From Opitutus sp. (GTDB lineage Bacteria > Verrucomicrobiota > Verrucomicrobiia > Opitutales > Opitutaceae): a stretch of DNA of 64,000 nucleotides. Under the pieces are notes generated by a model. It made no database searches, was not told the DNA's origin, and was given only the letters and a program-made list of their open reading frames with translations. The position numbers and the translations under genes were made by a program. Location: positions 1,646 to 65,645 of the forward strand of contig SIBG01000010.1 of assembly GCA_009695305.1 (NCBI GenBank). Direction: 5' to 3'. Positions 6,647 through 63,396 of this stretch are shown here, in pieces (within the stretch, counting starts at the first letter, position 1; every line of letters starts with the position of its first letter).

Positions 6647-6681
6647 CCATCGAAAATCTCCCGTCACCCATCGAAAATCCC
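6647..6681. repeat. AATCGAA-family heptamer array abutting the frr start codon
   Basis: CCATCGA AAATCTC CCGTCAC CCATCGA AAATCCC followed directly by the ATG at 6682. Confidence 0.7.
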
Positions 6682-7227
6682 ATGTCTCACCCCATCCTCA
6701 CCGACACGCAGGCCAAAATGAAAAAAGCCGTGGACCACACGCTCCACGAGTTCAGCTCCATCCACACCGGCAAGGCCACGCCCGCGATGGTCGAAGGCGT
6801 GATGGTCGAAGCCTATGGGACGATGACGCCCCTCAAGCAGTGCGCCGCCATCTCCACGCCCGATCCGCGCCTCATCCAGATCCAGCCGTGGGACGCCAGC
6901 CTCATCAAGTCCATCGCGAAGGGCATTCAGGAAGCCAACCTCGGCTTCAACCCGATCGTCGACGGCAAACTCATCCGCATCCCGCTGCCAGATATGAGCC
7001 GCGATCGCCGGCTGGAATTCGTCAAGACCGCCAACCGGCTCGCCGAGGAAGGTCGCGTGCACGTCCGCAACGTCCGCCGCGACGCCCATGAGGTCGCGAA
7101 AAAGGCCAAGCTGCCCGAGGACGAATCGAAGCGCCTCGACAAGGACATCCAGACCGCGACCGATAGCGCGATCAAGAGCATCAACGATCACCTCGCCCAC
7201 AAAGAAAAGGATCTGCTCACGGTGTAG
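6682..7227 (+). CDS. frr: ribosome recycling factor
   Basis: 181-aa ORF with typical RRF sequence (IRIPLPDMSRDRRLEFVK.., VRNVRRDA). Confidence 0.95.
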   Translation: MSHPILTDTQAKMKKAVDHTLHEFSSIHTGKATPAMVEGVMVEAYGTMTPLKQCAAISTPDPRLIQIQPWDASLIKSIAKGIQEANLGFNPIVDGKLIRIPLPDMSRDRRLEFVKTANRLAEEGRVHVRNVRRDAHEVAKKAKLPEDESKRLDKDIQTATDSAIKSINDHLAHKEKDLLTV

Positions 7228-7295
7228 GTCGGGCTTTAAGCCCGACACGTTTCGGTCGTCGCCCCGCCTCGTGTCGGGGATAAATCCCGACCTAC
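7224..7295. repeat. REP doublet (GTAG-type) between frr and proB
   Basis: GTAGGTCGGGC-TTTAA-GCCCGACAC ... GTGTCGGGG-ATAAA-TCCCGACCTAC. Two hairpins in inverted orientation, with the GTAG tetranucleotide typical of REPs. Confidence 0.7.
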
Positions 7296-9633: not shown

Positions 9634-11637
9634 ATGGATTTCGCCCTCGACCCAACCTCCGCGCCGCCCGGTGTCCCGCCGATTGATTTTCGCGCGTCGC
9701 TGAACGACGAGCAGTTCAACGCCGTCACCGCCCCCGCCGGCCCGCTCCTCGTGCTCGCCGGCGCCGGTTCGGGCAAGACCCGCACGCTCACCTACCGCGT
9801 CGCCTACCTCCTCTCCCAAGGCGTCCGCCCCGGCGAAATCCTGCTCCTCACGTTCACCAACAAGGCCGCAAAGGAAATGCTCCACCGCGTCCACGACCTC
9901 ACCGGCGTCGAGCCCGGGCGGTTTTGGGGCGGCACGTTTCACAGCATCGGCCATCGCGCGCTCCGGATGCATGGCGAGGCCATCGGGCTCCCGCGCACGT
10001 TTACCATTCTCGACGCCGACGAATCCGAGGGCGTCCTCCGTGACGCCGTCGAGGCGAGCGACCGCACTTTTTTCAAGGACAAGACCCACCCGCGCCCTGG
10101 CCCGCTGCACTCGCTGCTCTCGATGGCGCGCAATACTCAGCTGCCGCTCGACGAAACGATTACGCGCTTCTTCCCCCAGCACGACGGAATCATCGAGCGC
10201 GCGCCGCTCTTCGCCAAAAAATACGCCGAGGCCAAGCGCACCGCCAACGTCGTCGACTACGACGATCTCCTCGAGTTCTGGCTCGAGCTCCTGAAAAAAT
10301 CGCCTGAGACCGCCGCGTATTTCTCGCACCGCTTCCGCCACGTCCTCGTCGACGAATATCAGGACACCAACACCCTCCAGTCGCAGATCGTCGACCTCAT
10401 CGGCGCCCACCACCAGGTGATGGCCGTCGGCGACGACGCGCAGTGCATCTACACGTGGCGCGGCGCCAACGTCGAAAACATCCTCACCTTTCCCGACCGC
10501 CATCCCGGCACCGTCATCCACCGCATCGAGACGAATTACCGCTCGACGCCGCAAATCCTGGCGCTGGCCAACGGCGTGCTCGAAGCCCAGCCGAAGGGTC
10601 GGGCCTTTGAAAAAATTCTCCGCCCCCACCGCGCCAACTCCGAGAAACCCTACTTCGTGCAGTCGATGGATGGCCGCGAGCAGGCGCAGTTCATTGTGCA
10701 GCGCATCCGCGGCCTCGTGGACGAAGGCTGCGCCCTCGCCGACATCGGCATCCTCTACCGCGCGCATTTCCACGCGCTCGACATCCAACTCGAGCTTTCG
10801 CGCCTCCAGATTCCCTACCAGATCACCAGCGGCGTCCGCTTCTTCGAGCAGGCCCACATCCGTGACCTCGTCGCGCTGCTCCGTTTCGTTTACAACCCCT
10901 CCGACACCGCCGCGTGGAACCGCATCGCTGTGCTCCTCCCGAAAGTCGGCGACAAGAACGCCGCCAAGCTTCACGCCGCCGCCCTCGATCACGCGAAGTT
11001 GCTGAAATTGAATCTCGTCGACGCCCTCGACACCGACGACGTGAAGTCGAAAGTGCCGAAGGATGCGAAGGAAGAGTGGCCCAAGTTCACCGCCTCGCTC
11101 GCGCAAGTCGCCGACGTGATGCGCACGATGAAGCCGCACAACGCCGTCGAGATCGCGATCGACGGCTGGTATGGCGACTACCTCAAGGGCCAATACTCCA
11201 ATTATCTCTCCCGCCTCGACGACTTGAAATCGATGATCGGCTTCGCGAGCCGCTACGAGGACATGCAGGAACTGCTCGCGCAGATCATGCTGCTCAACAG
11301 TGAGACGAGCGACCGCTCCGCCGACCCCGACGCCGACGCCCTCCGGCTTACCACGGTGCACCAGGCCAAAGGCCTCGAATACGCCGCCGTCTTCCTGATC
11401 GGCCTCGCCGACGGCAGTTTCCCGCTGCGCCGCGCGATCGAAGCCGGCGACGTCGAGGAAGAGCGCCGCCTCTTCTACGTCGCCGTCACGCGCGCGAGAG
11501 ACGAGCTCTACCTCTGCTTCCCAAAAGTAAACACGAAAGGCGGCCCCGTGATGATGCAAACCCCCAGCCGCTTTCTCGAGGAACTATCGCCCGAACTCTA
11601 CCAACCGCTGAAGATCAAGCGGAGCTTTGGGTGGTAG
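9634..11637 (+). CDS. uvrD: UvrD/PcrA/Rep-family SF1 DNA helicase
   Basis: The ATG at 9634 gives MDFALD...LNDEQFNAVTAPAGPLLVLAGAGSGKTRTL (motifs I/Ia). Also VDEYQDTN, TNYRST, TVHQAKGLEY and YVAVTRAR. Confidence 0.9.
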   Translation: MDFALDPTSAPPGVPPIDFRASLNDEQFNAVTAPAGPLLVLAGAGSGKTRTLTYRVAYLLSQGVRPGEILLLTFTNKAAKEMLHRVHDLTGVEPGRFWGGTFHSIGHRALRMHGEAIGLPRTFTILDADESEGVLRDAVEASDRTFFKDKTHPRPGPLHSLLSMARNTQLPLDETITRFFPQHDGIIERAPLFAKKYAEAKRTANVVDYDDLLEFWLELLKKSPETAAYFSHRFRHVLVDEYQDTNTLQSQIVDLIGAHHQVMAVGDDAQCIYTWRGANVENILTFPDRHPGTVIHRIETNYRSTPQILALANGVLEAQPKGRAFEKILRPHRANSEKPYFVQSMDGREQAQFIVQRIRGLVDEGCALADIGILYRAHFHALDIQLELSRLQIPYQITSGVRFFEQAHIRDLVALLRFVYNPSDTAAWNRIAVLLPKVGDKNAAKLHAAALDHAKLLKLNLVDALDTDDVKSKVPKDAKEEWPKFTASLAQVADVMRTMKPHNAVEIAIDGWYGDYLKGQYSNYLSRLDDLKSMIGFASRYEDMQELLAQIMLLNSETSDRSADPDADALRLTTVHQAKGLEYAAVFLIGLADGSFPLRRAIEAGDVEEERRLFYVAVTRARDELYLCFPKVNTKGGPVMMQTPSRFLEELSPELYQPLKIKRSFGW

Positions 11638-11780: not shown

Positions 11781-12545
11781 ATGAAATCACTCCTCTTCCA
11801 CTCTGCCCTGCTGCTCGCCCTGGCCACGGCGCCCCTCACCCACGCCGCGGACGCTACCATACCCAATTCAAAGCCCGTCCGCGCTCTGCTCATCACCGGC
11901 GGTTGCTGCCATGACTACGCGCTCCAGGCCGAAGCGTTTATCGAGGGCGTAAAAAAATACGGCGCTGTCACCTGGACCGTCGTCAACGAGGGCGGCACCA
12001 CCAAGAACGCGAAGATCGCGCTCTACGACAACCCCGACTGGGCCAAGCCCTATGACGTCGTCGTGCACAACGAGTGCTTCGCCGACCTCGATGATCCGGT
12101 CTACATCCGGAAAATTACCGCGGCGCACCGGGCCGGCGTGCCCGCCATCGTCATCCACTGCGCGATGCACACCTATCGCGTGACGGCCGCCGACGACTGG
12201 CGTGAGTTTCTTGGCGTCACGAGCCGGCGCCACGATCACCAAAGCAAATATCCCGTGACGCCCGTGGTGAAAGCTCACGCCGCGATGCTTGGTTTCCCCG
12301 CGTCATGGGTGACGCCCATGGACGAACTTTACGTGATCGAAAAGCTCTGGCCGGGCGCGAAGGCCCTCGCGACCTCCGTCAGCGAAGCCGATGGCAAAAC
12401 CTATCCCGTGATCTGGGCGAACGATTACCACGGCACGCGCGTCTTCGGCACCACCTTCGGCCACGGCAATGCCACGTGGCACGACCCCGTGTTCATCGCC
12501 GTCATTTCCCATGGCCTGCTCTGGGCCGCCGGCCGGGAGAATTGA
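11781..12545 (+). CDS. secreted ThuA-like domain protein
   Basis: MKSLLFHSALLLALATAPLTHA signal peptide. Also RALLITGGCCHDY and GTRVFGTTFGH. Confidence 0.65.
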   Translation: MKSLLFHSALLLALATAPLTHAADATIPNSKPVRALLITGGCCHDYALQAEAFIEGVKKYGAVTWTVVNEGGTTKNAKIALYDNPDWAKPYDVVVHNECFADLDDPVYIRKITAAHRAGVPAIVIHCAMHTYRVTAADDWREFLGVTSRRHDHQSKYPVTPVVKAHAAMLGFPASWVTPMDELYVIEKLWPGAKALATSVSEADGKTYPVIWANDYHGTRVFGTTFGHGNATWHDPVFIAVISHGLLWAAGREN

Positions 12546-12556
12546 TTTGCCGCTCC

Positions 12557-12925
12557 CTAAAGTTTTTCCAGCTCGGCAAAGTGCGCGTCCGTCGATTCGA
12601 CCTCGACGCCATGATGCCGCGCACAGGCTACGATCAGCAGGTCGGTGACCGGGATCGTGAGTCCGGAGGTCCGTGCGCGCCGGGCCAGATCGCAGGCAAG
12701 CTCCCAGACCTCGGCGGGCATGTCCAATTCCGGCAGCACTTGCTCAAATTCGCGCAGGGCTTTTTTTTCCCTGGCACCACGTGCGCCGTTCCACAACTCA
12801 AGACGGACCACTGGCGACCAGCACGCTCGGCCGCCAAGCACGTGCGCATGCAGTCGTCGCCGAACCTCGGCGTCCCCGCGCTCACGGAGCGCTTCGATCC
12901 AGCAACTCGTGTCGATCAAGATCAT
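12557..12925 (-). CDS. vapC: PIN-domain toxin VapC
   Basis: MILIDTSCWIE... and TDLLIVACA are PIN acidic-residue signatures. There is a 4-nt ATGA overlap with the upstream antitoxin ORF. Confidence 0.85.
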   Translation of the reverse strand: MILIDTSCWIEALRERGDAEVRRRLHAHVLGGRACWSPVVRLELWNGARGAREKKALREFEQVLPELDMPAEVWELACDLARRARTSGLTIPVTDLLIVACARHHGVEVESTDAHFAELEKL

Positions 12926-13137
12926 AGGGTGTGTCGGCCCGACTCACGCATCCGCTTGAGATCAGCCTGCGTCATGAAGTCTTTGAAGGTGCCGAGGTGC
13001 CGCGTCAGCGCCGCCAGCCGGTGCCGCTGATTGAAATCAGCCACGGCGCGCGCCACGGCCTCGGTCTTGGTCTTGGCTTTGGCGTGCTTCATGGCTTCCG
13101 TCAGGTCTTTTTCAGGAAGGTCAACGGTGGTTTTCAT
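12922..13137 (-). CDS. vapB: type II antitoxin (VapB-like, DUF2191/RHH-type)
   Basis: MKTTVDLPEKDLTEAMKHAKAKTKTEAVARAVADF... Its stop overlaps the vapC start. Confidence 0.7.
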   Translation of the reverse strand: MKTTVDLPEKDLTEAMKHAKAKTKTEAVARAVADFNQRHRLAALTRHLGTFKDFMTQADLKRMRESGRHTL

Positions 13138-13168: not shown

Positions 13169-14320
13169 TCAAGCACGCAATGCTTCCGCGACCTGCATCA
13201 CCCGCAGCGTGTTGCCGCCCCACAGCTTCGCCAGGTCCGGCTCGCTCCACCCGCGCGCGACCAGTGCCCGCGTGATGTTCGGAAAGTCCGCCACGTCGCG
13301 CAGGCCGGCGAAGCCGCCTCCGCCGCCATCGAGGTCGCACCCGATGCCCACGTGGTCGATGCCCGCTACCGTCACCGCCTGCTCGATGTGCCGGATGAAA
13401 TCGTCGAGCGTCACGGGCGGGTTCGGATGCTCCCGACACACCCGGTCGTAATCGCGGTCTTCCGCGGCCGTTGTCGCCGGGGAGAAGATGCTGTGCTGGT
13501 GTCGGAGCAGCACTTCGGTAATCGCCGCCGTGCGGCCGTTGTCCGGCGCGGTCACGAGCGCGACCGGCAGCGCGTTGATCTGGATCACCCCGTCTTTCGC
13601 CGCGAGCACGCGGAGCAATTCGTCGCCGACATTGCGCGGGTGGTCGGCCATCGCGCGCGGGCCACTGTGCGAAAGCACGACGGGGGCACGCGAATGCTCC
13701 AGCAAATCGCGAAGCGCACCGTCGCTCGCGTGCGAGGCGTCAAGCACGAGGCCGAGTCGGTTGCACTCCGCCACGACCTCCCGCCCCAGCGGACTCAACC
13801 CACCCCACTCCGCGCCACGCGGGTCGGTCGAGGAGTCGGCCACGTCGTTATTGAGGCTGTGCGTCAACCCGAGCATCCGCACCCCGAGGTCGAAGAACGT
13901 CTGCACGTGGCCCGGGTCGCGCCCGAGGGAGTAAGCGTTCTCGACGCTGAGGTAAATCGCGCGCTTCCCTTCCGCCTTCAGCCGCAGCCCGTCGTCCGCC
14001 GTCAGCGCCAGCCCGCACTCGCCAGCATTTTCCTGCACGACCGTCCGCGTCCGCTCAAAACACCGCACCGCCCGTTCGTGGGCCGCCTGCCAGCCCGCCG
14101 GTGTCCGCGCGAGCTGCCCCACGTAAACCGCGAACACCATCGCATCCATCCCGCCGGCGCGCATCCGCGGCAGGTCAATTTGCGAATGATCCAACCCGTA
14201 ATCGTGCCGCGCGGCGAAATCCCACCCCGCGCGCATCAGGCTCGCCGTCGGCGTGTCGCTGTGCGTGTCGATCGTGAAGAGCCGTTCGTGGAGCGTGGAG
14301 TCGTTGGAGTGCATCACCAT
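13169..14320 (-). CDS. membrane dipeptidase (peptidase M19 family), cytoplasmic-type paralog
   Basis: FTIDTHSDTP, LGLTHSLNND, NRLGLVLDASH, VVLSHSG and GIGCDLDGGG are M19 metal/active-site blocks. No signal peptide. Confidence 0.85.
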   Translation of the reverse strand: MVMHSNDSTLHERLFTIDTHSDTPTASLMRAGWDFAARHDYGLDHSQIDLPRMRAGGMDAMVFAVYVGQLARTPAGWQAAHERAVRCFERTRTVVQENAGECGLALTADDGLRLKAEGKRAIYLSVENAYSLGRDPGHVQTFFDLGVRMLGLTHSLNNDVADSSTDPRGAEWGGLSPLGREVVAECNRLGLVLDASHASDGALRDLLEHSRAPVVLSHSGPRAMADHPRNVGDELLRVLAAKDGVIQINALPVALVTAPDNGRTAAITEVLLRHQHSIFSPATTAAEDRDYDRVCREHPNPPVTLDDFIRHIEQAVTVAGIDHVGIGCDLDGGGGGFAGLRDVADFPNITRALVARGWSEPDLAKLWGGNTLRVMQVAEALRA

Positions 14321-14330
14321 GATTTTGTCG

Positions 14331-14374
14331 GTCGGGGTTTAGCCCCGACACGTCGGGCGTAAAGCCCGACCTAC
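14331..14374. repeat. REP doublet (same family as 7224..7295)
   Basis: GTCGGGG-TTTA-GCCCCGAC AC GTCGGGC-GTAAA-GCCCGAC CTAC. The CTAC overlaps the stop codon of the downstream dipeptidase gene. Confidence 0.7.
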
Positions 14375-15606
14375 AGCCCGTTGCGCCGCTTCGCCAGCTC
14401 CTCCGCGGCGTGCAGGAGGCGCAGCGTGTTGCCGCCCCAGATTTTTCCCACGTCGGCCTCCGACACGCCATGCTTCAGCAGCGCGAGGGTGATCTTCGGG
14501 TAGTCGCTCACATCCTCGAGCCCGACCACGCCGCCGCCATCCATGTCCGCGCCGATGCCAACATGCTCGGCGCCCGCGATGTCGATGGCGTGAAAGAGGT
14601 GCTTCAGAAAATCGTCGAGCGTCGCCCGCGGGATTTTGAACTGTTCCGCCAGCTTCTGGCCCGCGAGGGATCGCTCGACTCGCTGCGCACCCGTCAGACT
14701 GCTCCCGGCGTATTTCGCGGTGAGCCTGGCTTTGGCCGCATTGAACTCGGGATTGATCGGCACCGGAATCATGAACTCGCTCACCGTGTTCATCTGGATG
14801 ACGCCGCCGTGCGCAGCGAGTTCGCGCATGAGCTCGTCCGTGACGTTGCGCGGGTGCGAACAGATCGCCTTGCAGGCGGAGTGCGTGAGGATCAACGGCG
14901 TCTGCGAGAGCGTGATAAGTTCGTGCAGCACGGTGTCGGCGGAATGCGAGGCGTCGATGACGAGGCCGAGGCGGTTGCATTCCTAGACCGCGTCCCGGCC
15001 GAGCGGGCTGAGGCCGTGCCACTCGGGGCCCGCGGTCGGCTGCGAGGAATCGCCGAGGTCGTTGTTGCCGTTGTGGACGAAACCAAAAAATCGCGCGCCG
15101 AGCTGGTGGTAAGTTTTGAGCAACGTGAGGTCCTGGCCGATCGCGTAGCCGTTCTCGACACTGAGGTAGAGAGCGCGTTTGCCCGCCGCCATGAGGCGCG
15201 GACCGTCGGCCGCGGTGAGCGCCAGTCCGCATTGCTCCGGGAAACGCTCGGCCACGGCCTGCACGCGCCGGAAGGTGCGCAGGGCGTTGTCGCGCACGGC
15301 CGCGTAGCCTTCCGGTGTGCGCGGACCTTGATCGACGTAGACGGCGAAGACGCCCGCCTTCAGCCCGCCGTCGCGCATCCGCGGAAAATCCAGCTGCGAA
15401 AAATCCGTCGCGCGGTCGTGGCGTTGCGCGATGTCCCAGTCGGGGCGGCGGAGGCTGAGCGTCGGCGTGTCGATGTGCGTGTCGATCGTGAAGATCCGCG
15501 CATGCCACGCCGCGGCGCGGGCGGCGAGTTCGGCGTCCGTTTCGGCGCAGAGCGCGGGAAGCAACGCGAGGGTGAGCAGTGAAAACGAAGAGCGAGCTAG
15601 GTTCAT
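14371..15606 (-). pseudogene. M19 dipeptidase paralog with signal peptide, interrupted by one in-frame TAG
   Basis: ORFs 14983..15810 and 14371..14931 are in the same frame. The TAG at 14983..14985 splits ...GLSPLGRDAV*ECNRLGLVIDASHS, which is collinear with the paralog's GLSPLGREVVAECNRLGLVLDASH. The ATG at 15606 gives MNLARSSFSLLTLALLPALCA. Confidence 0.8.
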
Positions 15607-15805
15607 GATTCGGGGAAGGCTCCGACAGTGAGAACGGCGGGGCGCGTTGCAAGCCGGAGGCCAGGCCAGAATTTCAATTCCGCTGGTTAGGCCCGTTCCA
15701 GGTCCGACTCCAATCTTGAAACGCGGAGGTCGCGGAGCCCACGGAGAGAAATCGCTTCGACTTCGCGTTCCCCGCGCATACCTCGGACGTGTTTTCAAAA
15801 TGCTT

Positions 15806-15870
15806 GTCATCGCGAGGTGCGCAAAGCGCGCCGTGGCGATCCAGCTGGATTGCGTCGTCGCATCTCCGCA
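15806..15870. repeat. GTCATCGCGAG-family palindromic element (degenerate right arm)
   Basis: GTCATCGCGAGGTGCGCAAAGCGCGCCGTGGCGATCCAGCTGGATTGCGTCGTCGC... Related to the elements at 27438 and 34451. Confidence 0.55.
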
Positions 15871-15916: not shown

Positions 15917-16864
15917 ATGTCCAACCCCTCCGTCGAAAACGTCGTCATCATTGGCACTGGCTGCGCTGGCCTCACCGCCGCCATCTACACGGCACGCGCC
16001 AGCCTCAATCCGCTCGTCCTCGAAGGCCCCCTGCCCGGCGGCCAGCTCACGACGACGAGCGAAGTGGAAAACTTCCCCGGCTTCCCGCACGGCGTGGACG
16101 GCTTCCAGCTCACGCAAAACATGCGCGAGCAGGCCACCCGCTTCGGCACCCGGTTTGAGTCGGCGCTCGTCACTTCGGTCGATTTCACCTCGATGCCGCG
16201 CAAACTCGTGACGGCTGACCGCACGATCCTCGCGAAGACCGTCATCATCGCCACCGGCGCCTCGCCGCGCCTCACCGGCATCCCCGGCGAAAAGGAACTC
16301 TACGGCGGCAAGGGCGTGACGACCTGCGCGACGTGCGACGGCGCGTTCTATAAAAAAATGGAGGTGGCGGTGCTCGGCGGTGGCGACAGCGCCGCGGAGG
16401 AGGCGCTCTTCCTCACGCGTTTCGCGAGCAAAGTTTATCTCGTCCACCGTCGCGACACGCTCCGCGCCTCGAAGATCATGGCCGACCGCGCGACCTCGCA
16501 CGAAAAAATCCAACCGGTCTGGGACAGCATCCCCCTCGAAATCCTCGGCGTGAAAGAAGGCGCCGTCAGCGGCCTGAAAATCAAACACGTGAAAACCGGT
16601 GCCGAGTCCGTGCTGCCCGTGAAAGGCATCTTCGTGGCCATCGGCCACATTCCGAACACAGGCCCGTTCGCGCCGCCGCTCGAAGTTGACGAGGGCGGCT
16701 ACTTCAAGCCGCAGCCCGGCTCGCAGGTGCAGACGAACGTCCCCGGCGTTTACGTCGCGGGCGATTGCTCCGACCACGTCTACCGCCAGGCGATCACCGC
16801 TGCCGGCATGGGCTGCGCCGCCGCGATCGACGCCGAGCGCTGGCTGGCCGAGCACCACGCGTAG
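15917..16864 (+). CDS. trxB: thioredoxin-disulfide reductase
   Basis: [13 protein letters not shown], the redox CATCDG motif, and [10 protein letters not shown]. Confidence 0.95.
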
Positions 16865-16917
16865 AGGAGACGATGTCTGAGCTGTGAGAGAGCTGTGGGA
16901 GGGGCTTTATGCCCCGA
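16766..16917. repeat. copy A of a 152-bp direct repeat (trxB 3' end + REP half)
   Basis: Matches 19735..19886 at 149 of 152 positions in a hand alignment, with a constant offset of 2969 bp. Confidence 0.9.
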
Positions 16918-17590
16918 CTTAAAAATTTCCATTAATTCAATCGGGGCATAAAGCCCCTCCCACAGTGACAAACCCTGATCCGCTGCCACCGAATCCAGGC
17001 TACTGTGCTCTGCGGCGACATCGCTGGTCCGCTGGCGGTTTCGACTATTTCGTAACGATCAACCTGCACCGCCCAGCCGCGGGATTGAGCGAGCCAGCTC
17101 TGCTCGCAGCGCTCGATCACCAGCGCCTCACACTCGAAGCCGAAGGACACTGGAGCGTCCGCACATGGGTCGTGATGCCCGATCATCTTCATGTGCTCTT
17201 CACGCTGGGCGGAAAAATTTCCCTCGCCGATTGTCTGCGCCTGTTCAAGGGCCGGCTGTCACCCGCGCTCCGGGCACATCGGTTGGCGTGGCAAGATGGC
17301 TATCACGAACATCGCATGAGACCCGAGGAAGACCGCCTGCCGGTCTTCCTCTACATTTTCCTAAACCCGTATCGCGCGAAACTCATTTCAGTGTCGGAAA
17401 AATGGCCGGGATATTTCTGCGCGGTCGAAGACTGGGGTTGGTTTGGCGGTCTCACGAATGCCGACGTGCCTTATCCCAAATGGCTGGGATGAGGACAGCC
17501 GGGGTGCTGGACTCCAAACTGTGAGAGGGGCTTTATGCCCCGATTGGAATTTCATCTCAACCCAATCGGGGCGTAAAGCCCCTCCCACAG
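16893..17590 (+). mobile_element. REP doublet - RAYT - REP doublet unit
   Basis: The Y1 transposase-like ORF is flanked on both sides by inverted pairs of CTGTGGGAGGGGC-TTTAT-GCCCCGA (16893..16965 and 17519..17590). Confidence 0.8.
16965..17492 (+). CDS. REP-associated tyrosine transposase (RAYT, IS200/IS605 Y1-like)
   Basis: YFVTINLH, the HUH motif in VVMPDHLHVLF, and catalytic-Tyr region YIFLNPYRAKL. GTG start inside the REP. Confidence 0.85.
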   Translation: MTNPDPLPPNPGYCALRRHRWSAGGFDYFVTINLHRPAAGLSEPALLAALDHQRLTLEAEGHWSVRTWVVMPDHLHVLFTLGGKISLADCLRLFKGRLSPALRAHRLAWQDGYHEHRMRPEEDRLPVFLYIFLNPYRAKLISVSEKWPGYFCAVEDWGWFGGLTNADVPYPKWLG

Positions 17591-17597
17591 TTTCAGA

Positions 17598-19676
17598 TCA
17601 TCTTTCGAACCCGATCTTCTTGCGCAGCGCCTTGAAGCGCGGTTCGTCGCGGAGAATGTCGTTCACCGGGTCGACCTTGAGAAACCAGCACGCGGCATCG
17701 ATATCTTCGTAGCATTTGTCCAGCCAGTCCAAGGCCTTCGCCTTGTCGCCCAGGCCAAGATAGACCATCACCCGCCATCCGGGGGCAACGAAGCGCAGTT
17801 TCTGTTTCTCCATTTCTTCAAAGCCGCGCAAAATTTCCTCGGCTTTGGCGCGGTCGCCCGCCACGGCATACGCGTAGCCGAGGATGGCGTCGCGAAAAGG
17901 ATGGTTATCCAGCGTCTTCGCTTTCTGCAACGCCGCGATGGCGGCGGCCGATTCCGTTTTGAACAGGGCGCAACTTCCCAACAGGTGATGGGCGGGTGCA
18001 AAGTTGCCGTCCAATTCCAGCACCTTGCGGGCTTGGGCGATCGCTTCGTCGTAGCGGCGCGCGTGGTAGAGCCACCAGCCAAGGTCGCACGCCATCAACG
18101 GCGAGAGCGGGTCCAGTGCGATCGCCTTCTTTTGGTTGGCGATCGACTCGTCAAACCGCGCGAGCATCGCCAGCACCCAGGCGTATTGATCATAGACGAG
18201 CGCGAGGTTGGGATTCAGCTCGATCGCACGCTTCATTTTTTCCTGCCCCGGCTCCCACTCGAAAAGAGCCACCTGCGCCAGCCCCAGCGAAAAATGCGCT
18301 TCGGCCAGATTGGGCGCGAGGGCGAGCGCTTGTTGCGCGAGTTCCTTTTGCTTCGTCCACGCCTCCTTGCCCGACATCACCCCCGGCTGGTAACCGAGGT
18401 TGTCGGCCAGGCCGCAATAGGCCAAGGCGTAGCCCGGATCCGCCTTGATCGCCTCGGTGAAGAATCGCTGGGCGTTGGTCCAGCCCTCGGCGGTGTTCTT
18501 CGCGAAATGGAAACGGCCGAGCAGGTAAAGGCGGTGGGCCTCCGGATTCTCGGTCGCTTTCTTTTCGAGCGATGGCTTGCCGGCGGAGAGCAACGTAATC
18601 TTCAGCGCCGCGGCCACGCGCTCGGCGACGTCGCGCTGCATCTTGAAGATGTCCTTGAACTCGGTGTCGTAGTCCTGCGACCACAGGTGCCGCTGGCTCG
18701 CGACGTCGATCAACTGCACCGTAATCCGCAACTGCTCGCCCGCCTTGCGCACGCTGCCCTCAAGCAGCGTCCCGACCCGAAGTTCCGCGCCGATTTCGGA
18801 GAAACTCTTGCCGGATTTCTTGGCGCGCTCGGACGAAGTGCGCGCGATGACTTCGAGTCCGCTGATTTTTGAGAGGCTGGACGTCAGCTCCTCGGTCAGG
18901 CCGCCCGCGAGGTATTCGTCCTTGGTGTCCGGGCTGAAATTATCGAGCGGCAGCACGGCGAGGCGGTGCGGATCGAGCGCGGTGGATTTGGCTGCTGCCA
19001 AATCCATGGGTCTTGAGGTTTGAGTTTTTGGTTCAACGGCGACCGACGCAGGCGCGGATTTACGGGTGGCGAAGAATCCAACGACGCCAATTACCACGCC
19101 GGCAAGCGCGGCCCACGCCCAGCCGGGCAAGCGTCGTTTGGACTGTAGGGCGGGGTCGCCGGACCCCGCCGCGGTTGACGACGCTGAAGACGGCGCGGTT
19201 CGGCGACCTCGCCCCACGACTGGCACGTCAGCCGGCGCAGCAAGCAGGCGTTTCACTTGCTCGACAAATTGCGTCGTCGGAAGCGCGCCGGGCAGGCGGG
19301 TCCACTGCACCCGCATGAATTCGGCGGGCACGGCCGCGCCGGACTCCGAGGTGTCGTCGATCACGACGGGCGCGAGAAACGGCACGCCTTCCAGCATCAG
19401 GTGCGTTTGCTCGATCGCCAGTTTCCATTCGAGCCGGAAGTAGCCTTTGCTCCGCGCCTGGGTGTTCGTCGAGATGATCGGCAGGAAGAGCGTGCAGTCG
19501 GCGATCTGCCGGCGGATTTTTTGGTCCCACGTGTCTCCGCCGCGCAATTCGTTCTGGTCGAACCACACCTCGACGCCATGGCTGCGCAGCGCCTCGGCGA
19601 TGCGCAGAGCGGCGGCGGTATCCTCGCGCGCGTAGCTGACGAAGACGGCGGTGGGTGATGTGGGAGATTCGGGCAC
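17598..19676 (-). CDS. TIR domain / single TM / TolB_N-like / TPR-repeat protein (paralog 1)
   Basis: GTG start. The TIR_2-like N-terminus reads [47 protein letters not shown]. It is followed by the hydrophobic helix [19 protein letters not shown], then [33 protein letters not shown], and then TPR-like repeats to the C-terminus. Confidence 0.8.
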
Positions 19677-19734
19677 GGATCGGAGTGAACTGTCAGCGAA
19701 CGTGGTGACGGCGTCGGGCGTAGACGAGGAGAAA

Positions 19735-19886
19735 TGCTCCGACCACGTCTACCGCCAGGCGATCACCGCTGCCGGCATGGGCTGCGCCGCCGCGATCGAC
19801 GCCGAGCGCTGGCTGGCGGAGCACCACGGGTAGTGGAGACGATGTCTGAGCTGTGAGAGAGCTGTGGGAGGGGCTTTATGCCCCGA
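19735..19886. repeat. copy B of the 152-bp direct repeat (orphan trxB C-terminal fragment + single REP)
   Basis: Encodes [31 protein letters not shown] plus a stop, identical in context to the trxB tail, followed by CTGTGGGAGGGGCTTTATGCCCCGA without an inverted partner. Confidence 0.9.
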
Positions 19887-19901
19887 TTTGAAGTCGCCAA
19901 A

Positions 19902-21194
19902 TCACCCCACCTCAAACCGCCGCGTCTGGATCGCGTTGCGGCCTGTCTTCAGCATGGGCCGCGGCTCCGGCTGGGCGTAGCCATTCAAATCTACGGCACG
20001 GGCACGCACTTCGTAACGGCCGGGGGCCAGGCCTCGGATCGATGCGGACCAAGAAACCATGCTGTAGCGCAGCGGCCAGGTTGCGGGCTGGCCGGTCACG
20101 GGATTGAAACCCAGAACCTCCCTGGCCGACACCCCGGCCGGGAAGATGTGACTCCAATCGGTGGGCGCATCGTCCAGCCGGCATTCCGTCCATTGCGCGT
20201 TCTGCCACGCTGGATCATCCTCGGAAAGTTCGCCGGGCTGGCCGTTGGCGGGACGTAACCAATATTCAACCCGCTGCAAACCCGACCAGCCAGCGATCGC
20301 GAGGCCACTCACGAACACGGGCTGGCCAACGGGAATTTTCCCGCTCACCTCGTCGAGATAGGCCGCCGTCTTGAGGTGCGATTCGGGATCGTTGTTGGCA
20401 ATCGCGTAGGTGTCGTTCGCCTTGAAATCGTTGGTGAGGACGATCTGCTGCAGCCACTTGATGGATTTGAATCCGTGCGACCAGGGAATGACCATCCGCA
20501 CCGGACCGCCGCGTTCCAGCGGGATCGGCGCGCCATTGAGCCGGTAGGCCAGAAAGGCGGGCAGCTCACCCGGCGGCGTTTCCATCGCGGCCGTGTAGCT
20601 CAACGAGGATTGGAATCTCTGCTTCGGGTCGTTGTTGTGAAATCCCCAGTAATAGATGCGGCGCACATTGGTCATCCGGCCGCAGAGCCGCAGCACCTCG
20701 CGCAGCGGCACGCCTTCCCACAAACCCTGCCCCAACGGCGTGGCAATATTCAGGCACTGCATGGCCTTGAGGAACTTCACCCCGTGCTTTCTTCCCAGTT
20801 CCATCAACGCGGCCAGGTCCAACGCGGTTCCGTCCGCGAGTGTCAGCGAGCGGGTGATGCTGGCCGGTAGTTTGACGATCTCATCGACCGTCGGATCGGC
20901 CACGATTTGCAGCCGCCACGTTTCCGGCGTGAGCCGGGCTTGAACGAGCGCGTCGCCGGTGAGCGTGAACGGCTTGGGATTGCCCCGGGACACGTCCTCG
21001 AACTTGTCCGCGGGGGTGAGAAAGGGATGCGGGTAAGTGGTCTTGGGTGGTCGCGGCGGTGCCTGCTTGGGTGCAACCGGAGTCGAAACCTCCGCGGCCA
21101 GCGCGGTGTTGAGCAGCCCCGCGGTCAGCGGGGCGGCAGCGAGGACGGATGTCCTGAGCATGAAGTCGCGGCGAGTGATGGGAGAGGGGGGCAT
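19902..21194 (-). CDS. Tat-exported molybdopterin-dependent oxidoreductase (sulfite-oxidase family)
   Basis: The ATG at 21194 gives MPPSPITRRDFMLRTSVLAAAPL (twin-arginine signal). Also an Oxidored_molyb-like core (KAMQCLN..., LAYRLNGAPIPLERGGPVRMVIPW..GFKSIKWL). Confidence 0.8.
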   Translation of the reverse strand: MPPSPITRRDFMLRTSVLAAAPLTAGLLNTALAAEVSTPVAPKQAPPRPPKTTYPHPFLTPADKFEDVSRGNPKPFTLTGDALVQARLTPETWRLQIVADPTVDEIVKLPASITRSLTLADGTALDLAALMELGRKHGVKFLKAMQCLNIATPLGQGLWEGVPLREVLRLCGRMTNVRRIYYWGFHNNDPKQRFQSSLSYTAAMETPPGELPAFLAYRLNGAPIPLERGGPVRMVIPWSHGFKSIKWLQQIVLTNDFKANDTYAIANNDPESHLKTAAYLDEVSGKIPVGQPVFVSGLAIAGWSGLQRVEYWLRPANGQPGELSEDDPAWQNAQWTECRLDDAPTDWSHIFPAGVSAREVLGFNPVTGQPATWPLRYSMVSWSASIRGLAPGRYEVRARAVDLNGYAQPEPRPMLKTGRNAIQTRRFEVG

Positions 21195-21302
21195 GATTGC
21201 CGATTTTCGATTTTCGATTGCCGATTGAGGCAGGACCAGGGCGATGAAGCGGAAAAGTGAGTCGCTCCGGTTGCTCAATTGGCAATCGCCCATCGGCAAT
21301 TC
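21195..21302. repeat. heptamer-array hairpin (AATCGAA family), two inverted arms
   Basis: Arm 1 (21195..21227) is GATTGCC GATTTTC GATTTTC GATTGCC GATTGAG. Arm 2 (21276..21302) is CAATTGG CAATCGC CCATCGG CAATTC, the inverse complement. It fills the gap between the TIR paralog 2 stop and the molybdoenzyme start. Confidence 0.75.
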
Positions 21303-23629
21303 TCAAAACAGCGGCGCGTTGTTCTTCGGGTCGTTGAGCAGCGCCTCGAACCGCGGGTCGCCGCGGAGCGGGGCATACAACGGGTCGTGTTTCATCTCAT
21401 AGATATTCAGCGAGCCCGGAATGCGCAGCAGCCGGGCAATTTCTCCGATGGCACGGTCTTTGTCACCGTTCCAGGCATCCACTTGGGCGCGCACCACGCT
21501 GATCCCTACGCCGACGAAAGCGTTGTGTGCCTCCGGCATATCCTCCGCTGCCCGGGCGATCCGGCGCAGCGCCTCGTCCTTGTTGCCCAGGATTGCCTCG
21601 ACGAGTGCGGCATCCCGCAGATGCTGGTTATTGTCCGGCTCGAGTTCAAGCCGCGCACGCAGCGTCGCGGGAATGGTTCCCAGTCGGGCACGCGCGCCGT
21701 CCAGATCGCCCTGGCTGCGGAAAACCGCCGCCGCGATCGTCGCCTTGGTGACATCGGGCAAACCTTCCGGGTCAGTGGGGGGATGGAGTCGATCCAGTCG
21801 GATAAACTCGGCGTAGTCGTTTCGTCGCAGCGCTTGGGTCATTCGCAGGCCGATGACCTCGGGCGATGACGCATCGCGGGCTTCCAGCCGAACGAGCAGT
21901 TCATCCGTGTCCCGGGTTGAACCGGTGGCGAGAAATGTCATCCGTGCAAGCTCCAACGCCCACTCCGGCCCGTCCGGCTGCAGCGCCACCAGGCGGCGTT
22001 GTTCCGCCAGCGCCTCGTCAAAGCGACGGACCATCCGGTAGGCCGACGCCAACACGCGGGCGGTCCCGGCATGGGTCGGGTCGAGCTGCGCCACTGTTCG
22101 CCGGGTGGCAATGTATTCGGGCCAACGACCTTGGATTAACTGGACAATGGCCAGCCGACTGCGTGTCTCGGCATCGTTCGGCTGGAGCCGCAGCAACTTC
22201 TCGAACTGCTCGCTCGCGCGAGCGTGATCCCTGAGGCCAAAATCAAAATAGACGCCGACCGCGCGGATCACCTCAGGCGATTCCGGCGCGAGCGCGCGCG
22301 CCCGGTCGATGGCGACCGTCGCTTTCGCCAGTCTGGCAGGTGTGGTGTCGACGTAGGCAACCCTCATTTCCACGTGCACGACCGCCAGTTCGCCCCACGC
22401 GATCGCAAACGCCGGATCGAGCGCTACGGCGGACTGGAGCAATGACTCCCGCTCTTGAAAAGATGCTTTCAATGATTTGTTGCTGCCTCTCGCCGCACGC
22501 GACTTGAGATAAAGATCGTAAGCGGCGGGATTCTCCGTCGGCCGCCGTGCGATCAGATTTTTTTCCTGCGGCGACAGCACGGTCTGGAGCGCACTGGCGA
22601 TGGCCTGGGCAATTTCGGACTGGATGGCGAAGACGTCGGTCAGTTTACGGGTGTAGGGCTGCGGCGACCAGATGTGGGTGTCGGTGCGGGCGTCGATCAG
22701 CTGGGCGCTCACCCGCACGGAGTCGGCCGCTCGCCGCACGCTGCATTCCAGAATATAGGTGACGCCGAGTTCGCGCGCGATTTCAGGCATTTTCTTGGTC
22801 GTATCGCGGTAGCCTATCACCGACTGGCGCGAGACCACGCGCAGCTCGCGGATGTTTTGCAGATTGGTCAGCACGTCCTCGTGGATGCCGTCGGCGAAGA
22901 ACGCGTTTCCCTTGTCTGGGCTGAGATTCGTGAAGGGCAGCACGGCAATGGACTTGTCGTTCAAAATCGGTGCTGCGGGCCCGGCTTTCGTTTCAGTCGC
23001 GGTCTTCGGCGGTGCGGTGAGTGGCTCGGATTTGCGGGTCGTAAAAAATGCGACGGCGCCAATTGCCGCAGCCGCGACTACGACCCACGTCCAGATCGGG
23101 ACGCCGCGGTTCGTCGGGGAGCGGGCTTTCGAGCCCGGGTCGTCGCGGCCCATGGGCTGGAAAGCCCGTGCCGCTTCGTTCCCCGGTGCGAGGAGGTGTT
23201 TGATTTGCTCGATGAATTGCGGCGTGGGCAGGCCACCGGGGAGGCGGGTCCACTGCACGCGCAGAAATTCCGCGGGCACGAGCGCACGCGATTCGGCGGT
23301 GTCGTCGATGGCCACTGGCACGAGGAACGGCACGCCCGCGGCCATGTCGTGCGTGCGCTCGACGGCGAGTTTCCACTCCCGGCGGAAATAACCTTCGCGG
23401 CGCGCCTGCGTGTGCGCGGAGATCACCGCGAGGAAAAGCGTGCAGCCGCGGATCTGGCCGCGAATCTTTTCGTCCCACGTGTCGCCCCCGTGCAGCTCAT
23501 TCTCGTCGAACCACACTTCGACCCCAAAGCCGCGCAACGCCTCCGCGATGCGGCGGGCGGCGTCGGTGTCCTCGCGCGCGTAACTGAGGAAGACGGCGCG
23601 GGCGTTGGGTGATGGGGGGAGTCGGACAC
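21303..23629 (-). CDS. TIR domain / single TM / TolB_N-like / TPR-repeat protein (paralog 2), 5' end frameshifted
   Basis: The intact ORF 21303..23537 starts at a TTG inside the TIR domain. The same frame continues upstream as ...PPSPNARAVFLSYAREDTDAARRIAEA with no start codon. A GTG at 23627..23629, homologous to the paralog 1 start, is one frame off across a G6 run (23614..23619). Confidence 0.7.
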
Positions 23630-23720
23630 GGGACGGACGAAGACCAATGGAGAACGTGGCCGCCGCGCCGGGTGGAGACGAGGAGAAATACGGAGCAGGT
23701 TTTAACCGCTAGTCCTCGCT

Positions 23721-25092: not shown

Positions 25093-25854
25093 ATGAGCCA
25101 ACTCGAAATTACCAACCTCCACGTCGCCATCGGCGAAAAGGAAATCGTCAAGGACCTCTCGCTGACCATCCGCAGCGGCGAAGTCCACGCCATCATGGGG
25201 CCCAACGGCACCGGCAAATCCACGCTCTCCAAAGCGATCGCCGGCCACCCCGATTATACGATCACCTCGGGCGACGTCCGGCTCGACGGCAAATCCATCC
25301 TCGATCAGGAAGCCGATGAGCGCGCCCGCGCCGGCCTCTTCCTCGCGTTTCAATACCCGAGTGAAATCCCCGGCGTCTCCATCGCGAATTTTCTGCGCGC
25401 CGCCCAGCAGGCGCGGATGGCCGAGGGCGAGGAACTCGACGCCAGCGCTTACTACAAGCGGCTCTACTCGAAAATGGATCTGCTCAAGATCGACCGGAAG
25501 TTCACCTCCCGCTCCGTCAACGACGGTTTCTCCGGCGGCGAAAAAAAGCGCTGCGAGATTCTCCAGATGGCGATGCTCGAGCCCAAGTTCGCGCTGATGG
25601 ACGAGACCGACTCCGGTCTCGATATCGACGCTCTCCGCATTGTCGCCGACGGCGTCAACACCATGCGCAGCCCCAATCTCGGCGTGCTCATGATCACGCA
25701 CTATCAGCGCCTCCTCGACTACATCGTCCCCGACCACGTCCACGTCATGTGGGACGGCCAAATCGTGAAGACCGGCGACAAATCCCTCGCCCTCGAACTT
25801 GAGGCCAAAGGCTACGACTGGGTGAAGAAGGAACTGGCGGCGGCCACCGGCTAA
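25093..25854 (+). CDS. sufC: Fe-S cluster assembly ATPase SufC
   Basis: GPNGTGKST Walker A, LSGGEKKR-like FSGGEKKR, and [10 protein letters not shown]. Confidence 0.95.
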
Positions 25855-25864
25855 ACGCCCAACC

Positions 25865-25952
25865 CTCAACGCTGAACTCTCAACGCTCAATGACCACCGC
25901 CCACCTCTGCTCACTTCAACGTTCAGTGTTGAACGTTAAACGTTGAGCGTTC
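25865..25952. repeat. heptamer-word hairpin between sufC and sufB
   Basis: Arm 1 is CTCAACGCTGAACTCTCAACGCTCAATG. Arm 2 is TTCAACG TTCAGTG TTGAACG TTAAACG TTGAGCG TT (strict period 7), the inverse complement of arm 1. Confidence 0.75.
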
Positions 25953-27429: not shown

Positions 27430-27437
27430 ACCCTTTT

Positions 27438-27513
27438 GTCATCGCGAGCCCGCACAGCGGGCGTGGCGATCCATCTAGCTGGATTGCTTCGTCGCTCCGC
27501 TCCTCGCAATGAC
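27438..27513. repeat. GTCATCGCGAG-family palindrome (complete copy)
   Basis: GTCATCGCGAGCCCGCACAGCGGGCGTGGCGATCCATCTAGCTGGATTGCTTCGTCGCTCCGCTCCTCGCAATGAC. The outer arms are complementary. Confidence 0.75.
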
Positions 27514-46352: not shown

Positions 46353-46394
46353 GATTCCATTCGGCAATCCTCATTCGGCAATCGGCAATTCCCA
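46353..46394. repeat. heptamer array (AATCGGC variant) abutting the 7TM-HD start codon
   Basis: GATTCCA TTCGGCA ATCCTCA TTCGGCA ATCGGCA ATTCCCA, then G and the ATG at 46396. Confidence 0.75.
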
Positions 46395-48825: not shown

Positions 48826-48921
48826 ATTCGTTCTCGTTCCTCGTTCTCTTTCTCGTTCTCTCTTCCCGCGAGAGCGCCCGACAGGAGAACGAATAACGAT
48901 TACGAAGAACGAGAACGATTC
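48826..48921. repeat. CGTTCTC-word hairpin between 7TM-HD and ybeY
   Basis: Arm 1 is ATTCGTTCTCGTTCCTCGTTCTCTTTCTCGTTCTCTC. Arm 2 is GGAGAACGAATAACGATTACGAAGAACGAGAACGATTCGG. The arms are inverted, with internal period 6-7. Confidence 0.75.
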
Positions 48922-63382: not shown

Positions 63383-63396
63383 AATCGAAAATCACC
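63362..63396. repeat. AATCGAA-family heptamer array spanning the pyrR stop up to the pyrB start
   Basis: AATCGAA AATCACC AGTCTAA AATCGAA AATCACC, then CG and the ATG at 63399. It contains the pyrR TAA. Confidence 0.8.

Follow-up and report, generated by a model that had tools for sequence, protein, structure and literature searches.

Five-unit AATC heptanucleotide arrays before start codons in an Opitutus sp. genome region and their possible role as leaders without Shine-Dalgarno motifs

What role could be played by short heptanucleotide arrays that end at start codons, just where one would look for a Shine-Dalgarno (SD) sequence? The question is raised by a stretch of 64,000 nucleotides from Opitutus sp. 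(assembly GCA_009695305.1, contig SIBG01000010.1, positions 1,646 to 65,645 of the forward strand), here called the window, for which the gene calls of the 70.5-kb ENA metagenome contig containing it were used with Pfam as a check. A preliminary description had listed five arrays of period 7, an inverted second arm beside one of them and a position inside phoH for the fifth. All of these were recovered: the arm is present, the fifth copy lies within phoH as called (44673–45695), and each array has five TC teeth at an exact spacing of 7 nt, the TC usually being part of AATC (Table 1). We identify the arrays with high confidence as members of the AATC family of bacterial heptanucleotide tandem repeats, and with the same confidence describe the module as five AATC-like teeth at 7-nt spacing, about 32–35 nt long and on the sense strand, sometimes with a complementary GATT-type arm upstream. 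As to function, the reading that we tentatively favour is that these arrays would be an SD-independent translation-start leader region.

Table 1. Heptanucleotide arrays and array-like hairpins of the window (positions are those of the window).
Feature	Position	Strand	Sequence and context
frr leader array	6647-6681	+	ccATCGAAAATCTCCCGTCACCCATCGAAAATCCC; teeth CATC, AATC, CGTC, CATC, AATC; ATG at 6682
Molybdoenzyme leader array	21195-21226	-	AATCGGCAATCGAAAATCGAAAATCGGCAATC; AATCGGC AATCGAA AATCGAA AATCGGC AATC; directly abuts ATG 21194-21192
Inverted partner arm of molybdoenzyme array	21276-21302	-	GAGAAUUGCC GAUGGGC GAUUGCC AAUUGAG (mRNA strand)
sufC-sufB spacer hairpin	25853-25952	+	heptamer arms, CAACGCT-type then AGCGTTG-type; from TRF and sequence; fold z = -2.74
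phoH array	44826-44860	+	AATCGAAAATCGCCAGTCGAAAATCAAAAATCCTC; AATCGAA AATCGCC AGTCGAA AATCAAA AATCCTC; in-frame translation NRKSPVENQKSS
7TM-HD leader array	46353-46394	+	five in-register teeth 46359-46390: ATTC, AATC, ATTC, AATC, AATT; ATG 46396
7TM-HD-ybeY hairpin	48828-48918	+	periodic arms, TCGTTC-type then GAACGA-type; -44.2 kcal/mol, z = -5.79
pyrB leader array	63362-63396	+	AATCGAAAATCACCAGTCTAAAATCGAAAATCACC; AATCGAA AATCACC AGTCTAA AATCGAA AATCACC; ATG 63399, 2 nt on

The window arrays are real and far from chance, with about 0.1 arrays expected. The pattern AATCNNNAATCNNNAATC, allowing at most one mismatch, was found 10 times in the window, where shuffles gave an expectation of 0.10. 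Four strict ATC chains with four or more units were present against 0.09 expected, and a relaxed five-tooth scan returned three arrays, each of exactly five teeth, against 0.01. Period 7 was the commonest period in the periodic intergenic segments of the window, and TRF reported it at 21195 and 46361, together with period 21 at 44822. Autocorrelation at a lag identity of at least 80% missed most arrays because only four of the seven positions are conserved. The same unit family is present at five loci within 64 kb, four of them intergenic.

Placement next to start codons was the second main observation. The distance from array end to ATG is 2 nt (CC) at frr, 0 at the molybdoenzyme gene, 1 at the 7TM-HD gene and 2 at pyrB, and all four arrays are on the sense strand downstream of a co-directional gene. 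With about 50 starts in 64 kb, we calculate a chance of about 0.001 that an array would end 0–2 nt before a start in the right orientation, and four such cases among five arrays are therefore not attributable to chance. The surroundings differ from one locus to the next: the frr array occupies a pyrH-frr spacer of 59 nt, the 7TM-HD array, the most degenerate of the five, forms the 3' end of a 173-nt spacer, and the pyrB array covers the last codons of pyrR together with its stop TAA (63380–63382), which falls within unit 3. The molybdoenzyme array precedes a molybdopterin oxidoreductase gene (Pfam Oxidored_molyb) with a twin-arginine (TAT) signal, and its partner arm begins immediately past the stop codon (21303–21305) of the upstream TIR-TPR gene. 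The gene caller had placed the molybdoenzyme start at 21293, 99 nt further upstream, reading through the array. Our own translation puts the twin-arginine motif TRRDFM directly after ATG 21194 and this favours the start at the array edge, as had been proposed, so that here is a case of a gene caller reading through an array to a start too far upstream.

Arrays were said in the preliminary description to stand in the SD position without containing GGAGG. The position is borne out at the four start-adjacent arrays, and none of the five contains GGAGG. No GGAG, GAGG, AGGA or AAGG was found within 20 nt upstream of the four genes with start-adjacent arrays, any 4-nt SD-like match at that distance precedes only 9 of 50 window genes, and the arrays do not belong to the SD class as defined by GGAGG-like words 4–13 nt before the start. 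SD mimicry was rejected for want of such words. The 16S gene is absent from the window, and the AAUCACC word is identical to the 16S 3' end, not complementary to it. The window genes thus show a genome with almost no SD motifs. At position -1, 31 of 49 genes have C, and most positions between -8 and -1 are poor in G. No tetramers stand directly before starts more often than AATC and CACC (5 of 50 each), and of the six AATCATG words in the window, where about two would be expected in total, five are annotated starts. These high counts of AATC before ATG suggest that a single tooth is itself a favoured start context, which makes a link to translation initiation reasonable. Surveys have found SD-poor lineages among Bacteroidetes, Cyanobacteria, Planctomycetes and some Verrucomicrobia, and describe for such lineages a C immediately before the start codon and little structure in its surroundings (PMC5397173, PMC10783764).

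If the arrays are start leaders, the module would form the last 35 nt or so of the mRNA leader and act as an SD-independent start region. It would leave this region free of structure and poor in G, provide the AAUC-AUG context that is favoured (A at -3), and probably present five sites in register to a single-strand RNA-binding protein of the OB-fold type, one domain of which (S1 or cold-shock type) would cover about 7 nt; a footprint of one heptamer per cold-shock domain has been discussed (PMC4679880). Arrays would arise and turn over by slippage or duplication and be retained where they are useful or harmless to initiation, and an upstream complementary arm, by forming a stop-to-start hairpin, could tie downstream initiation to the upstream gene being translated. 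The observations behind this reading are the sense orientation of the window arrays and their nearness to starts, the rarity of SD-like motifs, the AATC-ATG context, the unstructured leaders, viral arrays shortly before candidate starts, and a spread over several phyla that surveys describe as SD-poor (PMC5397173, PMC10783764). We infer any effect on ribosome loading, and likewise the reading of five teeth by five OB-fold units. A bolder version would take five AAUC teeth at 7-nt spacing, with sister families like CTCAACT and AGCTAAN, for a widespread SD substitute of SD-poor phyla and phages, read by a tandem OB-fold array such as S1 with one domain per heptad. We regard this as distinctly unlikely; if true, it would give a function to heptanucleotide repeats (short tandemly repeated repetitive sequences, STRR) that have been unexplained since 1990.

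The family extends well beyond the window. Scanning 185,579 species genomes with AATCGAAAATCNNNARTCNNNAATC returned at least 120 loci, with about nine matches expected by our estimate at equal base frequencies. Among the 80 genome matches listed, record titles assigned 18 to Planctomycetota, 12 each to Verrucomicrobiota and to Bacteroidota and allies, nine to Acidobacteriota, nine to delta-type, Nitrospirota and related groups, eight to Cyanobacteria, seven to Chloroflexota, two to Actinomycetota and one to Gammaproteobacteria, with no Bacillota or Alphaproteobacteria among them. In viral contigs the same pattern was found in 94 stretches with a median GC of 57%. Genome arrays among the matches listed had four teeth in 14 cases, five in 87, six in 20 and seven or more in 11 (87 of 132 with five), viral arrays had a mode of five (65 of 96), and for genome arrays the tooth signal disappears in the flanking registers beyond the array limits. 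The two independent sets, one of genome loci and one of viral contigs, thus agree on a fixed size of five teeth. The free positions prefer GAA, TAA, CAA and AAA, which gives a consensus NAAAATC, and in the last tooth the final C is often replaced by T or G. One cyanobacterial locus (L016) mixes AATCGAA and AATCCCC units.

Control patterns run on the viral contigs were only partly informative. A period-8 pattern returned three stretches and is the only clean low baseline. The period-6 pattern, which has one specified base fewer, returned 105 stretches; the contigs concerned are AT-rich, with a median GC of 35%, some bear the label of giant-virus bins, and 6-nt repeats would be codon-compatible there. 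The 32 stretches returned by the reversed pattern proved to form a genuine heptad family of their own, (AGCTAAN)n (L298–L329), found for example in IMGVR_UViG_3300021255_003533 (L304, L324, L326). This family reaches 10 copies in one contig and often follows a GC-rich palindrome, and in a few cases an ATG comes within about 25 nt after it.

This distribution bears on the possibility that the arrays are functionless by-products of mutation, in which slippage favours 7-nt units, inverted duplication makes the arm, and both persist where they are harmless, as in short operon spacers, touching stops and starts merely for want of room. Among the long simple repeats of prokaryotes heptamers are the most abundant, with slippage proposed as their origin (Mrazek 2007, cited in both PMC4679880 and PMC4692102), which agrees with such a view. 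Set against it are a size that peaks sharply at five teeth in both sets with no decay with length, teeth that are conserved while the bases between them vary, and the recurrence of the same word at several loci per genome, across phyla and phage contigs. The arm is strictly polar as well: an inverted GATT-type arm within 200 nt lies upstream of 42 of 120 arrays (about 35%) and downstream of one among the matches listed, with spacers of -3 to 140 nt, and the viral arrays have 12 upstream and none downstream. Want of room does not describe the 7TM-HD array either, which sits at the start-proximal end of its long spacer, and about 70% of solitary arrays are sense-oriented by crude open reading frame (ORF) calls. 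Fixed size, arm polarity and tooth conservation together point to a reader of defined size rather than to plain slippage, and we consider slippage without function somewhat unlikely.

Proximity to start codons is weaker across phyla than in the window. An ORF-opening ATG follows within 30 nt for 27% of arrays in forward orientation, against 8% in reverse and 11% at random positions. ATG shows a spike where it replaces tooth 5 to give AATG (14 of 229), and a second peak 14–18 nt past the ATC of tooth 4. In one viral contig there are five same-strand arrays, each 4–20 nt before a candidate start that opens an ORF, and phage intergenic cassettes occur in the order GC-rich hairpin, array, ATG.

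These positions would also suit a promoter, in which TCGAAA of tooth 1 acts as the -35 element and NAAAAT of tooth 4/5, exactly 17 bp away, as the -10 element of leaderless transcripts or transcripts with very short leaders. Such a promoter would explain the need for five teeth. The geometry as read from the sequence fits (29 bp from T3 to T31), as do the frequent T or G at the end of the last tooth, the two ATG peaks, the phage cassettes and an array 12 nt upstream of a tRNA-Gly gene. At the four window arrays scanned, however, no match to the sigma-70 consensus (TTGACA-N16-18-TATAAT, at least 9 of 12) was found, and the terminator-like matches in the scans around them were unrelated to the arrays. 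At frr and the molybdoenzyme gene the putative -10 element would be only 1–3 nt from the ATG, too close for a transcription start at or before it. Nothing would be left for the middle teeth to do, and still they are conserved. The array at pyrB overlaps the 3' part of pyrR, and the one in phoH is coding. We consider the promoter explanation very unlikely.

Comparison of 80 orthologous pyrH-frr loci (RRF 75–87% identical) showed that the frr leader has AATC-type arrays in some relatives and CTCAACT-, CTCGACT-, GGCTCTA- or CCTAAAA-type arrays in others; in many there is no array at all, which indicates fast turnover. Both the presence/absence polymorphism and the change of family at orthologous sites, for which a comparison of relatives had been proposed earlier, were seen. 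The spacers range from 10 to 411 nt, and in long spacers arrays or hairpins take up all the room between stop and start. Where detected, the last array is A+C-rich and ends 0–14 nt before the frr ATG, and the first arm is G+T-rich and begins 0–11 nt after the pyrH stop. In the closest relative the phoH-7TM-HD spacer measures 14 nt, in comparison to 173 nt with an array in the window, and its 7TM-HD and ybeY genes overlap where the window has a hairpin; because this relative lacks both, the 7TM-HD array and the ybeY hairpin are either gains of the window or losses of the relative. The filled spacers, the differences in family between close relatives and the absence of two elements from the closest one are what slippage without function would lead one to expect.

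Other heptamer arrays accompany these loci in the relatives. Relative L201 carries three AATC arrays in 21 kb and a 7TM-HD leader with a GTCATTC-type array; the segments 9933–9993, 12418–12451, 12977–13027 and 19460–19498 hold GTCATTC-type arrays just before its phoH and 7TM-HD starts and array-derived insertions inside its 7TM-HD and ybeY ORFs as called, where the ybeY start may be miscalled. Spacers following frr (L125 3058–3161, L135 3059–3107, L134 1476–1593, L181 1485–1631) hold inverted arrays of other heptamers, of TGGTCAT-type (TTGGTCA-type in L125 and L135) and GTAGCGA-type, always with the G+T-rich arm first. The TGGTCAT-type word is the same as that of cyanobacterial STRR2 (TTGGTCA). 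It seems that different phyla share a small vocabulary of recurring heptamers.

The phoH array gives a different view of what is conserved. It lies in the hypervariable linker of PhoH, where 328-aa orthologues have no insert and several relatives encode peptides of the NPKSKIENQKS type, so that arrays create in-frame linker insertions in proteins. That the array sits in a dispensable linker agrees with slippage. The DNA arrays of the window, L296 and L201 have five teeth each, however, and among their columns 1 of 20 tooth positions is variable in comparison to 7 of 15 spacer positions (Fisher p = 0.011). The argument made in the preliminary description, that a period of 7 speaks against coding, does not survive this array, which is coding and conserved in orthologues.

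Conservation of teeth inside a coding region would be expected if the arrays were a multivalent platform for a heptad-reading protein with a role other than initiation, start proximity being secondary. Candidates would be a ribbon-helix-helix protein on duplex DNA, or a cold-shock or RRM-type protein acting on RNA stability or processing. The omega repressor of pSM19035, a ribbon-helix-helix dimer, reads WATCACW heptads on DNA, and its heptads are a precedent by which a 7-bp period, counted in the preliminary description against DNA bending, is compatible with recognition at the DNA level. On RNA, HutP sites, (UAG-N4)x3 with 7-nt spacing, and TRAP sites are examples of arrayed short cores read by oligomeric proteins. 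A fixed number of five sites with conserved cores of 4–5 nt and free spacer bases accords with a platform, as do arrays beside tRNA genes and after stop codons and the occurrence of direct and inverted layouts as in the omega operators, whose consensus is approached only by the two AATCACC units of the pyrB array. No candidate protein has been identified, and the quite different heptamers found at the same sites in relatives would need a co-varying or very tolerant reader; the sense-strand bias and the location of arrays inside operons, not at divergent promoters, also argue against a platform. On balance we hold it to be unlikely.

Folding predictions separated solitary arrays from those with a partner arm. 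Solitary-array leaders were predicted to be unstructured (frr -8.3 kcal/mol, z = +0.92; pyrB z = -0.35; 7TM-HD z = +0.36), and the molybdoenzyme array with its inverted arm gave a predicted stop-to-start hairpin (21185–21310, minus strand, -43 kcal/mol, z = -2.95). Two further spacers hold array-like hairpins (Table 1): the arms of the sufC-sufB hairpin fill the whole spacer with a polarity opposite to that of the AATC pairs, and the other lies between the 7TM-HD stop and the ybeY ATG (48928). The antisense of 21185–21310 folds better (-52.1 kcal/mol), antisense is favoured in all three window hairpins, and in 24 of 26 orthologous spacers the sense RNA folds less stably than the antisense, by about 9.6 kcal/mol (p = 2e-7). 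A sense-strand RNA hairpin as the selected unit, which was considered as a candidate, is weakened by these comparisons. The plus strand has a strong negative GC skew (C>G, down to -0.23) where genes run plus, and this skew alone suffices for antisense RNAs to fold better than sense; the fold bias may fit either a G-poor sense leader or the C>G skew of the genome.

Inverted arms in about a third of the arrays, with insertion polymorphism between relatives and some loci with identical-flank copies (L060, L071, L082), raise the possibility that the arrays represent the ends or the remains of some small mobile element, of the type of MITEs (miniature transposable elements with inverted repeats) or REPINs, that prefers spacers beside gene starts. 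A dispersal mechanism has indeed been suggested for species-specific heptamer satellites, which are known as such (PMC6749651). Short extragenic repeats that often form inverted pairs and hairpins between genes are features shared with repetitive extragenic palindromic (REP) sequences, REPINs and MITEs. REP units, however, are palindromic, lineage-specific and tied to a RAYT transposase, whereas the arrays are not palindromic, the solitary ones do not self-fold (z about 0 or positive), no transposase is adjacent, and the same word is present in many phyla. MITEs have a fixed length, target duplications and near-identical copies; here the sequence between the arms is unrelated and of variable length, as noted above, the five window copies share no flanks, and self-BLAST found no array-associated repeat. 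A fixed-length MITE was rejected on arm spacing and self-BLAST, and the suggestion of a compact mobile element made in the preliminary description is not favoured; we would give a mobile origin of any kind scant probability.

Several results weigh against a start-leader function. Only about 25–38% of arrays across phyla adjoin a start, so that the earlier claim of start-codon placement, good for four of five window arrays, is real but holds only in part outside the window. Some of the others lie after stop codons, flank tRNA genes (including hairpins between tRNAs) or are coding, context classes that are approximate because our own ORF-based gene calls for foreign loci were crude, and the translation-initiation element proposed earlier, reasonable in view of AATC before window starts, has most cross-phylum arrays away from starts to contend with. 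The AATC-ATG statistic depends on starts chosen by a gene caller, whose choice may use upstream motifs. Leader function cannot account for the conservation of the coding phoH array, the upstream arms of about 35% of arrays would sequester the leader, as in the -43 kcal/mol fold of the molybdoenzyme leader, and relatives with other families, with none or with a 14-nt spacer indicate that no single array is indispensable. For the proposed reader, cyanobacterial S1 is reported to be possibly without function in initiation (PMC5397173). As coding arrays, tRNA-adjacent arrays and sequestering arms fit poorly, slippage and a protein platform keep some probability, and a promoter or a mobile element a smaller one. 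The observation in the preliminary description is confirmed and its interpretation is partly supported.

Heptamer repeats were noticed beside start codons decades ago. The window provides a clean case of start-adjacent heptamer arrays in a verrucomicrobial-type genome with almost no SD motifs, and the five-tooth size, polarity and tooth conservation make the function of heptamer repeats more directly testable.

The window also holds repeats and genes apart from the arrays. A duplication of 152 bp with 98% identity (16766–16917 and 19735–19886; GAGCTGTGAGAGAGCTGTGGGAGGGGCTTTATGCCCCGA) comprises the 3' end of a thioredoxin-reductase-like gene and downstream sequence, its second copy lying between a TIR-TPR gene and the molybdoenzyme gene. 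Two paralogous TIR-TPR proteins (17598–19676 and 21303–23537) flank the molybdoenzyme gene and are 76% identical over about 500 nt (19240–19735 and 23188–23689). Palindromic elements of about 75 nt (16893–16966 and 17519–17591, partial at 19862–19892; GGGAGGGGCTTTATGCCCCGA...TCGGGGCATAAAGCCCCTCCC) flank both sides of a 175-aa gene (16965–17492) with no Pfam family on record, and look like a repeat of REPIN/MITE type that has no relation to the arrays. GTAG-headed palindromes (GTAGGTCGGGCTTTAAGCCCGAC) upstream of proB (7224–7248, plus strand) and of an M19 peptidase gene (14350–14374, minus strand) resemble GTAG-tagged REP sequences. A coding repeat of 9/18 nt at 54631–54702 (CTCGGCAAT / CTCGCCAAT; eight copies) encodes LGNLAN repeats in a 993-aa protein and reuses the array words GGCAATC and GCCAATC at a codon-compatible period. 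Stretches of 62 nt with 82% identity upstream of the thioredoxin-reductase-like gene and sufD (15804–15861 and 27436–27495) could be a shared regulatory site. The M19 dipeptidase region (13169–15606) is called as three consecutive ORFs with internal similarity (14092–14284 and 15306–15498, 73%), and a pyridoxal phosphate-dependent decarboxylase (40445–41782) falls into two ORFs with the break at 41179/41186; pseudogenes, frameshifts or paralogues in tandem may explain these cases. A PIN/VapB pair is located at 12557–13137.

How do the arrays compare with known systems? No described counterpart had been recognized in the preliminary description, which has to be corrected: the general phenomenon is already published for cyanobacterial STRR, for the GGGAATC-type repeats of Xanthomonas and Nostoc and for the TAACTGA repeats of Beggiatoaceae, and start-proximal heptamer repeats are among them (PMC4679880, PMC4692102). 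A literature text search found no paper with the AATCGAAAATC string, although the repeat class is described. Rfam returned no match in the window at the gathering threshold and, for 12 array-bearing loci at E <= 1, only tRNA, tmRNA and sub-threshold microRNA-type matches. As far as we found, the fixed five-tooth size, the arm polarity and the tooth conservation in coding sequence are so far unreported in the literature on arrays that do not form G-quadruplexes (G4), and we likewise found no report of five-tooth arrays in phage contigs in the heptamer-repeat literature.

The TAACTGA repeats of marine Beggiatoaceae, some Cyanobacteria and Bacteroidetes occur in 2–6 copies, mostly intergenic, in forward orientation a few nucleotides before the start, in spacers where SD sequences are rare; the downstream genes share no function, the function of the repeats is unknown, and S1, Csp and CsrA were proposed as readers (MacGregor 2015, PMC4679880). 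Four of the five window arrays share with them tandem 7-nt units in forward orientation within a few nucleotides of a start and without an SD. They differ in the word, which is AATCNNN here (AATCGAA, AATCGGC, AATCACC), and in that the TAACTGA units are near-identical whereas only a core of 4–5 nt is kept here; for TAACTGA, unlike the arrays described here, neither a constant size of five units nor an inverted arm on the upstream side was reported.

The GGGAATC repeats of Xanthomonas and GGGGA(T/C)T repeats of Nostoc are mostly intergenic, between co-directional genes and within 50 bp of a start or stop (Rehm et al. 2015, PMC4692102). They are transcribed, keep their position between relatives while varying in sequence, sometimes overlap stops and occur in inverted pairs, and a preference for four units was attributed to G-quadruplex formation (PMC4692102). 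Nostoc heptamer repeats that abut or overlap start codons had modest effects in reporters (bioRxiv 10.1101/2022.06.06.494920). The A(A/G)TC core is common to these repeats and the window arrays, as AATCGGG is a rotation of GGGAATC, and AATCCCC has GGGGATT as its complement. The G-tracts, in contrast, have no counterpart here, as no recurrent GGG or CCC run was found in the arrays, which nevertheless have a fixed size; G-quadruplex and i-motif were rejected on this ground. The arm polarity in Xanthomonas is opposite, the G-rich AATC strand following stop codons there. A Rho utilisation site, with one YC dimer per heptad, was set aside as well, the arrays being abundant in cyanobacteria, which to our knowledge lack Rho, and the spacing looking too short.

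Phase-variable 7-nt repeats between promoter and start codon of Haemophilus influenzae hmw1A and hmw2A act on expression through transcription, 5' untranslated region structure and processing (PMC8262952, PMC12721329). They resemble the arrays as tandem 7-nt repeats upstream of a start codon, and differ as long, perfect, hypermutable repeats of pathogen contingency loci, in comparison to short, imperfect arrays of fixed size before housekeeping genes. The omega, HutP and TRAP sites likewise have short cores, spaced 7 nt apart in direct or inverted arrays, and belong to local regulons with known proteins, whereas the AATC arrays are dispersed across phyla with no protein linked to them.

STRR were described as three heptanucleotides of Calothrix PCC 7601 (Mazel et al. 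1990, as cited in PMC4692102) and, as far as that account goes, only from heterocystous cyanobacteria; neither a set number of units nor a connection with start codons was part of the description. Heptanucleotide tandem arrays dispersed in intergenic DNA are common to both, and the arrays described here belong to the STRR type by their head-to-tail 7-nt units, their dispersed and mostly intergenic loci and their variation between relatives at conserved positions. STRR1, CCCCAAT, is AATCCCC in another rotation.

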